A stretch of 64,000 nt of DNA from an uncultured Acidobacteriota bacterium (GTDB taxonomy: Bacteria; Acidobacteriota; Terriglobia; Terriglobales; Acidobacteriaceae). How positions within the stretch are numbered: the stretch's first letter is position 1; every line of letters begins with the position of its first letter. Of the stretch, positions 18,330-18,722 are shown one piece after another. The stretch is from positions 202,186 through 266,185 of the forward strand of contig CAVWVX010000002.1 of the NCBI GenBank assembly GCA_963758565.1, written 5' to 3'. The notes under the pieces were generated by a model that ran no database searches, was not told where the DNA came from, and saw nothing but the letters and a program-made list of their open reading frames with translations. A program made the position numbers and the translations under genes.

Positions 18330-18722
18330 CTAGTGTTTGCTGGATTCGATGGGTTGCACGAAAACCCAAACGCTTCGGTTGCGGTCGCTATAGAACAAAG
18401 TGACAGTCACGTCGATGGGATTACGTTTAAAAGAGAAATGGTAACGGAATTTGCAATGGAGTTTACCGGCTGCGACTCCCTCGCGGAAGCGGCCGTAGAA
18501 TTCCTGAACGTCAGTGCAGGGAGCAACCTGCTTGAAGAAATTCTTGCCGAGGACGGTTTCGCGGTTCAGGCCGGCCAGGTTCGCTTCATACGAGTTGTAT
18601 TTGAGAATGGTGCCGTGGGCATCGAGTTCAATGACTCCCTGGGGAAGTGCATCTAACTCCGCTTGCGACATGGAATCGATGGTCTGAAAAAGTTGCGGCG
18701 TAGCGAGGGCGGCAGCTTGCAT
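18330..18722 (-). CDS. pyp: Photoactive yellow protein (PYP) homologue, PAS-fold photoreceptor
   Basis: 130 aa, colinear with Halorhodospira halophila PYP as I recall it. [30 protein letters not shown] aligns with [30 protein letters not shown]. Tyr42, Glu46 and Cys69 fall at identical numbering. Thr50 and Arg52 are replaced by Ala and Leu. Confidence 0.85.
   Translation of the reverse strand: [130 protein letters not shown]

Follow-up and report, generated by a model that had tools for sequence, protein, structure and literature searches.

Introduction

The reference photoactive yellow protein (PYP) is that of the purple sulfur bacterium Halorhodospira halophila (PDB 2PHY, 1NWZ), and in the canonical operon of this type pyp is adjacent to genes for tyrosine ammonia-lyase (TAL) and p-coumaroyl-CoA ligase (pCL). 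Here, we describe a stand-alone PYP homologue of 130 aa, encoded at 18330..18722 (393 nt, stop codon included) on the minus strand of a 64,000-nucleotide stretch of DNA (contig CAVWVX010000002.1 of assembly GCA_963758565.1, positions 202,186 to 266,185; hereafter the window) from an uncultured, non-phototrophic acidobacterium of the Acidobacteriaceae. Unlike the canonical operon, this gene adjoins neither TAL nor pCL. An earlier note on the same DNA had drawn attention to the gene for its occurrence in such a host, for its residues at positions 50 and 52, for the lack of chromophore-synthesis genes and for its proximity to the genes of an electron transfer flavoprotein (ETF). The evidence presented below indicates that the open reading frame (ORF) is probably a bona fide single-domain PYP occupying its own small cistron, the adjacency of which to etfBA is inherited within a lineage and probably does not reflect functional coupling.

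The note's implication that a stand-alone PYP in a non-phototroph is unusual does not hold, as PYPs of non-phototrophs, including those of Acidobacteriota, have already been catalogued (PMC9664959, PMC12826048). Acidobacteriota contributed fewer than five genomes in 2022 (PMC9664959) and 2.4% of 984 homologues, or about 24 entries, in 2025 (PMC12826048). Among the latter is MBV9573088.1, from the same Terriglobales subclade as the window PYP. The two proteins are 64.5% identical over 124 residues and share the motifs KNFFKQxAPCTD and DVTxTL, but differ at position 50, which is Ser in MBV9573088.1 and Ala in the window PYP; MBV9573088.1 is catalogued only. The nearest named neighbours in our neighbour-joining (NJ) tree are the Myxococcota clade A PYPs of Corallococcus coralloides (WP_014396933) and Pyxidicoccus fallax (WP_211194559), which are 47-52% identical to the window PYP and have in common with it Ala50, a hydrophobic residue at position 52 and a C-terminal TLFYSDxxxSVWV motif. 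They too are stand-alone, with no TAL, pCL or signalling neighbours listed (Xing et al. 2022, PMC9664959). They belong to another phylum, however, and the Corallococcus PYPs differ from the window PYP in that residue 42 is Phe and the N-terminus is longer by about 20 aa. The stand-alone PYPs of the chemotrophs Leptospira biflexa, Salinibacter ruber and Idiomarina loihiensis are likewise single-domain and are 39-41% identical to the window PYP, those of Leptospira and Salinibacter being clade B members. Leptospira PYPs adjoin chemoreceptor genes and the I. loihiensis PYP adjoins a GGDEF gene. By contrast, pyp in the window is not flanked by any signalling gene.

Results

The window encodes an intact PYP

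The pyp gene, which was identified by sequence, profile and predicted fold, begins with an ATG preceded by an AGGAG ribosome-binding site 7 nt upstream. In a global alignment, its product aligns without gaps over 125 residues with H. halophila PYP, which has the same single domain of about 125-130 aa, and 53 of the 125 positions (42%) are identical. The colinearity reported in the earlier note is borne out by this alignment, as is the canonical numbering of Tyr42, Glu46 and the chromophore-binding Cys69, the codon of which (TGC, 18516-18518) lies within a VAPCT motif. A 30-residue block described there as nearly identical matches at 23 of 30 positions; the similarity is real, though the wording was slightly generous. 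The aromatic array around the chromophore (Phe62, Phe75, Phe92, Tyr94, Phe96 and Trp119) is kept in the window PYP, and Phe62, Phe92, Tyr94, Phe96 and Trp119 are, together with Tyr42, Glu46 and Cys69, shared with the H. halophila protein. The two proteins differ at positions 50, 52, 98 and 100, which are Thr, Arg, Tyr and Met in H. halophila and Ala, Leu, Phe and Arg in the window PYP.

The protein was compared with all PDB sequences using phmmer. This gave 33 matches at E <= 1e-3, every one of them a chain of PYP, of a PYP-derived FAST protein or of the PYP domain of Ppr; the best has an E-value of 2.9e-30 over residues 3-123. Pfam assigns only PAS to the window PYP, and the same is true of canonical PYP. 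Among NCBIfam models, TIGR02373 (photo_yellow) is the top match with an E-value of 1.1e-36, whereas the generic PAS S-box model reaches just 3e-4. The structure predicted by AlphaFold2 from 34 clade members (mean pLDDT 81) contains two helices (residues 8-15 and 20-24) forming an N-terminal helical cap, followed by the PAS core. In Foldseek, this model matches PYP crystal structures with TM-scores of 0.86-0.92 and E-values of about 1e-14, the first PAS domain that is not a PYP ranking only at about 1e-6. Judged by sequence and predicted model, the similarity to PYP is far above chance and distinct from that to generic PAS domains. The possibility raised in the earlier note that the likeness might be limited to a generic PAS fold is thus not borne out by the PDB, NCBIfam and Foldseek comparisons.

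The chromophore-binding residues are conserved across a large acidobacterial clade

A scan for relatives, using one genome per GTDB species, recovered 473 relatives, the best of which is 74% identical to the window PYP (locus L008; L numbers denote related loci), so that the representatives do not include the source species. Of the best 80 of these 473, about 65 are from Acidobacteriota (Acidobacteriaceae/Terriglobales, Thermoanaerobaculia, Vicinamibacteria, Blastocatellia and Holophagales) and the remainder are mostly from Myxococcota. A search of 5.8 billion proteins returned 361 matches, many of them labelled "photoactive yellow protein" by JGI and "PAS domain-containing protein" by NCBI, from Candidatus Sulfotelmatobacter and similar acidobacterial metagenome-assembled genomes. 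An exhaustive phmmer search of 1.84 billion cluster representatives gave 601 clusters at E <= 1e-10. Record titles place the relatives in peat, palsa, bog and soil metagenomes.

Among the 120 closest homologues, Glu46, Cys69 and Phe96 are invariant (120/120 each), Phe62, Phe92 and Trp119 are each present in 119, and position 42 is Tyr in 102 and Phe in 18. Position 50 is Ala in 63 and Ser in 56, and position 52 is Leu in 109 and otherwise hydrophobic (e.g. Met), never Arg. Pairwise dN/dS against the window gene ranges from 0.04 to 0.26 for pairs with unsaturated dS, most pairs being saturated and uninformative. The gene is therefore intact and conserved, with PYP sequence, predicted fold and chromophore-binding residues, and it is under purifying selection.

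Phylogenetic placement by NJ, which had been proposed as a check, sets the window PYP within a Terriglobales group beside the myxobacterial clade A sequences. Identity to clade C PYPs is 28% for Terriglobus roseus and 36% for Edaphobacter, as compared with the 64.5% and 47-52% given above for MBV9573088.1 and the Pyxidicoccus/Corallococcus proteins. By these comparisons, the window PYP is part of a large, mostly uncultured Acidobacteriota clade nearest to myxobacterial PYPs. Membership of clade C (Burkholderiales-type, including Terriglobus roseus), which might be expected because the known acidobacterial PYP is that of T. roseus, is ruled out by residues and identity: clade C PYPs have lost Phe92, Phe96 and Trp119 and conserve Met100 (PMC9664959), whereas the window PYP keeps the former three and has Arg at position 100.

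Conservation of this kind also bears on whether the protein might be a PAS-domain sensor of PYP descent that has lost photoreception and responds to redox or to a small ligand. Such a shift would be in keeping with a TIGR02373 score under the curated cut-off, with the NCBI labelling of clade members as just "PAS domain-containing protein" and with the neofunctionalised PYP homologues proposed in Methylobacterium (PMC9664959). But those neofunctionalised forms have lost Cys69, Tyr42 or Glu46, whereas here Cys69 and Glu46 are present in every one of the 120 homologues, the aromatic cage and Trp119 are kept, and fold and sequence clearly separate the window PYP from generic PAS domains. We give this explanation hardly any credence.

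Some matches depart from the single-domain form. The top match, P0121 (4799 aa, 29 matched stretches), was considered as a PYP array and rejected, being a generic PAS-repeat protein that lacks the APC motif. P0122 (1174 aa), on the other hand, contains four tandem PYP-like domains, each with an APCT motif (Cys at about 661, 816, 964 and 1112), and P0136 and P0142 contain two PYP-like domains each. Several PYPs within a single polypeptide look unusual.

Positions 50 and 52 and the supply of chromophore

The earlier note had stressed that Thr50 and Arg52 of the model protein are replaced by Ala and Leu. The residues were read correctly, but they are not unusual. The PYP family consensus is Ser47, Leu49, Ala50, Leu52 and Thr97, and the atypical member at these positions is the Halorhodospira protein (PMC12826048); Ala50 and Leu52 of the window PYP are the consensus and not deviations from it. 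Absorbance is at 451 +/- 13 nm in the four Ala50 PYPs that have been characterised, among them that of L. biflexa (457 nm), and at 432-434 nm in S. ruber and R. centenum, whose PYPs have Ser50 (PMC12826048). Photoactive PYPs with Ala50 or Ser50 are known from L. biflexa, T. tepidum and S. ruber (PMC12826048). Since this includes both the L. biflexa protein and that of S. ruber, which combines Ser50 with Ile52 and absorbs at 432 nm, the substitutions of Thr50 and Arg52 are compatible with function.

The second feature presented as odd was the lack of TAL and pCL genes in the window. This holds among the large ORFs: Pfam detected no aromatic-lyase or AMP-binding domain in the ORFs of at least 373 aa in the 64-kb window, which encode a ribonucleotide reductase, a DUF2326 protein, ETF-ubiquinone oxidoreductase (ETF-QO), an RND pump and its adaptor, a radical-SAM/SPASM protein, a PALP enzyme, aconitase, an HMGL-like enzyme, a TPR protein, LigA and two proteins without a Pfam match. 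The search was extended to 87 related loci, up to 10 kb either side of pyp, by means of regular expressions rather than profiles, which very divergent enzymes could escape. The MIO (ASGD) motif was found in none of their ORFs, and the AMP-binding signature in only 2 of the 87 loci, about 5 kb from pyp. On these two results, the clade as a whole is unlinked to chromophore genes. What does not stand is that this is unusual. TAL and pCL were found in 5% and 32%, respectively, of 113 predicted pyp operons (PMC12826048), and within five genes of pyp in at least 10% and at least 30% of cases (PMC9664959). As most accepted PYPs also lack linked TAL and pCL, their absence is normal for PYPs, for which unlinked genes or uptake of environmental p-coumarate have been proposed (PMC12826048).

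The missing linkage could alternatively be read as a sign that these PYP-like proteins use another chromophore from soil or peat, such as caffeate, ferulate or a related hydroxycinnamate, or that they are largely apo in vivo and report hydroxycinnamate availability as well as light. The absence of TAL and pCL near pyp in the 87 loci and the peat, palsa, bog and soil habitats, rich in plant phenolics, are in line with this idea. Apo-PYP takes several hydroxycinnamate analogues in vitro. In addition, uptake of environmental p-coumarate has been raised in a published survey (PMC12826048). However, the pocket (Tyr42, Glu46, Cys69, Phe62, Phe96 and Ala67) is conserved as in PYPs that bind p-coumarate, and the frequency with which accepted PYPs lack these genes means that their absence says little. 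We therefore regard a different chromophore, or none, as very improbable.

A probably lineage-specific position of pyp beside etfBA

The third feature singled out in the earlier note was the proximity of pyp to ETF genes. In order of transcription on the minus strand, the genes of this region encode a beta-eliminating lyase, a Big_2 lipoprotein, a 91-aa protein, PYP, EtfB, EtfA, a Phd/VapC pair and ETF-QO. The etfB gene (ETF beta subunit, 17403..18197), a neighbour and probably not part of a pyp unit, has its longest ORF start at TTG 18197 but its likely true start at TTG 18173, which fits the 256-aa EtfB of relatives and is preceded by AGGAG. Both distances given for the spacer hold, pyp lying on the same strand 132 nt upstream of the former and 156 nt upstream of the latter. 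Further downstream are etfA (ETF alpha subunit, 16350..17345) and the ETF-QO gene (13949..15667), both on the minus strand and both neighbours identified by Pfam. Between these two, a Phd/YefM antitoxin and VapC (PIN) toxin pair is inserted (15674-16320, minus strand); at the same site, relative L004 has a different PIN insertion and L002 has none.

Directly 5' of pyp, at 18898..19173 on the minus strand, is a gene for a conserved 91-aa CxxC...CxxxxC protein without a Pfam family. This protein has CPHC and CKNMRC motifs, shows only a faint YnfU-like zinc-binding match and is 79-95% identical across Terriglobales loci. In relatives its gene is invariably placed immediately 5' of the etfBA cluster, whether or not pyp lies between them, and the product might be a small, as yet uncharacterised zinc-ribbon protein with an association to ETF.

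Metagenome contigs and about 11 Terriglobales species representatives show the same order, 91-aa gene, pyp, etfB, etfA, on one strand, and the pyp-etfB spacer is just 92-156 nt long. This raises the possibility that PYP is functionally coupled to ETF, either by co-transcription with etfBA and the ETF-QO gene or by PYP modulating ETF-dependent catabolism (fatty-acid or amino-acid oxidation) under blue light, for example so as to protect or down-tune photosensitive flavoproteins. The absence of a predicted terminator-like hairpin between pyp and etfB in the window and in most relatives, and an arrangement that has outlasted synonymous-site saturation, are both in its favour.

The pair is, however, broken in several relatives. 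In four species (L019, L022, L023 and L038), an MttB-family gene (490 aa, trimethylamine methyltransferase-like) on the opposite strand splits pyp from etfB, as exemplified by L038 10531-12003 (minus strand). L014 has a strong terminator and about 900 bp downstream of pyp. In L036, the 91-aa gene abuts etfB directly and pyp is 7 kb away. No ETF genes are found near pyp in about 20 other Terriglobales loci (including L008, with the 74% identical protein) or in about 50 loci of other classes, and these unlinked pyp genes nest among ETF-linked ones in the NJ tree. Close relatives (L008, L010-L018) have pyp in other contexts. Moreover, synteny extends over the entire wider block, composed of the genes for the beta-eliminating lyase, the Big_2 protein, the 91-aa protein, ETF, a GDSL lipase and MoaA, and therefore the adjacency of etfB is not specific to pyp. 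A literature search for a link between PYP and electron transfer flavoprotein found nothing. In a Terriglobales subgroup without ETF context, a gene for a 490-aa NmrA-like, NAD(P)-binding DUF2867 protein lies 3' of pyp on the same strand (L010 2151-3623, L016 8986-10458 and L018 10640-12112; also L011 and L012).

The putative control elements divide along the same line. A conserved 21-nt box, ATTTATACTTACCGGTTTGGC (ATTTATACTn5GTTT(G/T)GC, with a TATACT core), is located at 18210..18230 on the minus strand, about 37 nt 5' of the etfB start at 18173. It adjoins etfB in 15 related loci and is present in every locus with the above gene order, about 37-45 nt 5' of the etfB start (for example at L002 10450, L004 10452, L009 10464, L015 10493, L019 12955, L022 13485 and L033 10476). 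The box stays with etfB in L019 and L022, where the MttB-family gene intervenes, and a variant, GTCTATACTAAGAAGTTTTCC, is next to etfB in L036, where pyp is away. Because it travels with etfB and not with pyp, it would be an independent control element, probably etfB's own promoter, operator or leader. The intergenic region upstream of pyp (18723..18897, minus strand) contains the AGGAG site and, about 110 nt upstream of pyp, the motif TTACnnnnGTTT; it is a possible local promoter region of pyp. The TTACnnnnGTTT motif recurs only in ETF-linked loci, which assigns it to the ETF-linked site and rules it out as a general pyp element. A scan of the window found no sigma-70 consensus match near pyp or etfB, and a terminator scan gave only matches on the wrong strand near these genes. 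In the pyp-etfB spacers of the window and relatives, no hairpin is conserved or better than in shuffled sequence, except for the clear terminator of L014.

Considered together, these observations make functional coupling to ETF unlikely, and the adjacency highlighted in the earlier note is better explained as a lineage-specific position than as an operon. A more specific proposal can be formulated, namely that one Terriglobales lineage recruited PYP as a light (or light and hydroxycinnamate) input to ETF-dependent catabolism, the chromophore being scavenged from plant p-coumarate rather than made by TAL and pCL, with read-through into etfBA and the ETF-QO gene or direct action on those flavoproteins. 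We consider this very unlikely; if true, it would be the first metabolic, non-signalling output of a PYP.

Several points weigh against reading the gene as a bona fide PYP in a cistron of its own. Firstly, the TIGR02373 score of 125.6 bits is under the curated equivalog cut-off of 143.05. This model was built from four seeds; its coverage of accepted PYP homologues is only about 20%, the majority of them being given as "< cutoff" (PMC9664959), and for this reason the cut-off is an annotation threshold and not a defining property of PYPs. Secondly, no terminator is predicted between pyp and etfB, so that some read-through into etfBA may occur. Thirdly, the adjacency persists across genomes with saturated synonymous sites, which is some evidence for selection on the arrangement. 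Finally, no signalling partner of PYP is identifiable within the window.

A PYP-EAL-PYP arrangement in a sister clade

The PYPs of Thermoanaerobaculia belong to the same broad acidobacterial/myxobacterial clade as the window PYP, with 48-58% identity, but their context is very different. Here, and in related Acidobacteriota, a stand-alone EAL-domain gene is enclosed by two pyp genes that overlap it by 4 nt and are translationally coupled to it (e.g. L061 8908-10372). These PYP-EAL-PYP operons are adjoined by a divergent gene encoding a MerR helix-turn-helix and a B12-binding domain, an architecture like that of the light-dependent repressors CarH and LitR, and the downstream gene often encodes a protein of about 300 aa with a ferredoxin domain. 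Loci of this type are L061 7884-10372, L044 8911-10387, L057 9300-10764, L043 8760-10769, L062 198-2293 and L048 9012-11273. None of these features, i.e. the EAL phosphodiesterase, the tandem pyp genes or the B12-type regulator, is present in the window. The set is a candidate two-photoreceptor cyclic di-GMP module, and cyclic di-GMP outputs have been proposed for other PYPs (PMC9664959, PMC12826048). Because the sister PYP-EAL-PYP operons adjoin a CarH-like regulator, their context is independent, circumstantial support for the use of this clade in light responses.

Other features of the window

Elsewhere in the window, a run of plus-strand genes at 3630-8104, downstream of the class II ribonucleotide reductase gene, comprises a match to ABC-three-component (ABC-3C) CTD12 (3630-4568), a DUF2326 gene (4803-6611) and a DUF7002 gene (7325-8104), and looks like a conflict or defence island. 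Two large ORFs, 32055-34193 (minus strand, 712 aa) and 43770-46307 (plus strand, 845 aa), have no Pfam match at E <= 1e-5.

Discussion

A mechanism for the window PYP can be proposed by analogy with the family. p-Coumaroyl-CoA would supply p-coumarate as a thioester on Cys69, and Tyr42 and Glu46 would hold the phenolate of the chromophore. Blue light would isomerise the chromophore, which Glu46 would protonate, and a partly unfolded signalling state would then act on a separate partner protein. Given Ala50, an absorbance maximum of 435-465 nm is expected, as in other Ala50 PYPs. The chromophore might be made by enzymes encoded elsewhere in the genome (TAL and a 4CL-type ligase), or plant litter might supply the p-coumarate, which a general hydroxycinnamate-CoA ligase would activate after uptake. 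The pyp gene itself would be a small cistron placed in the spacer between the gene for the 91-aa Cys-rich protein and the etfBA/ETF-QO cluster, a position inherited within one Terriglobales lineage and probably devoid of functional coupling to ETF.

The window PYP is thus genuine but ordinary, the features that had been presented as odd being typical of the family. That PYPs are widespread in non-phototrophs, usually unlinked, usually Ala50/Leu52 and present in Acidobacteriota had already been established by the two surveys. A modest new point is that PYPs seem far more numerous in Acidobacteriota than one would gather from the catalogues, with 473 relatives among GTDB species representatives, most of the best 80 being acidobacterial, against about 24 of 984 entries. 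Mildly new are the recurrent pyp site beside etfBA and the PYP-EAL-PYP/CarH-like arrangement of the sister clade. Peat and soil Terriglobales may commonly sense blue light, and the stand-alone and PYP-EAL-PYP forms could help to find the long-sought downstream partners of single-domain PYPs.

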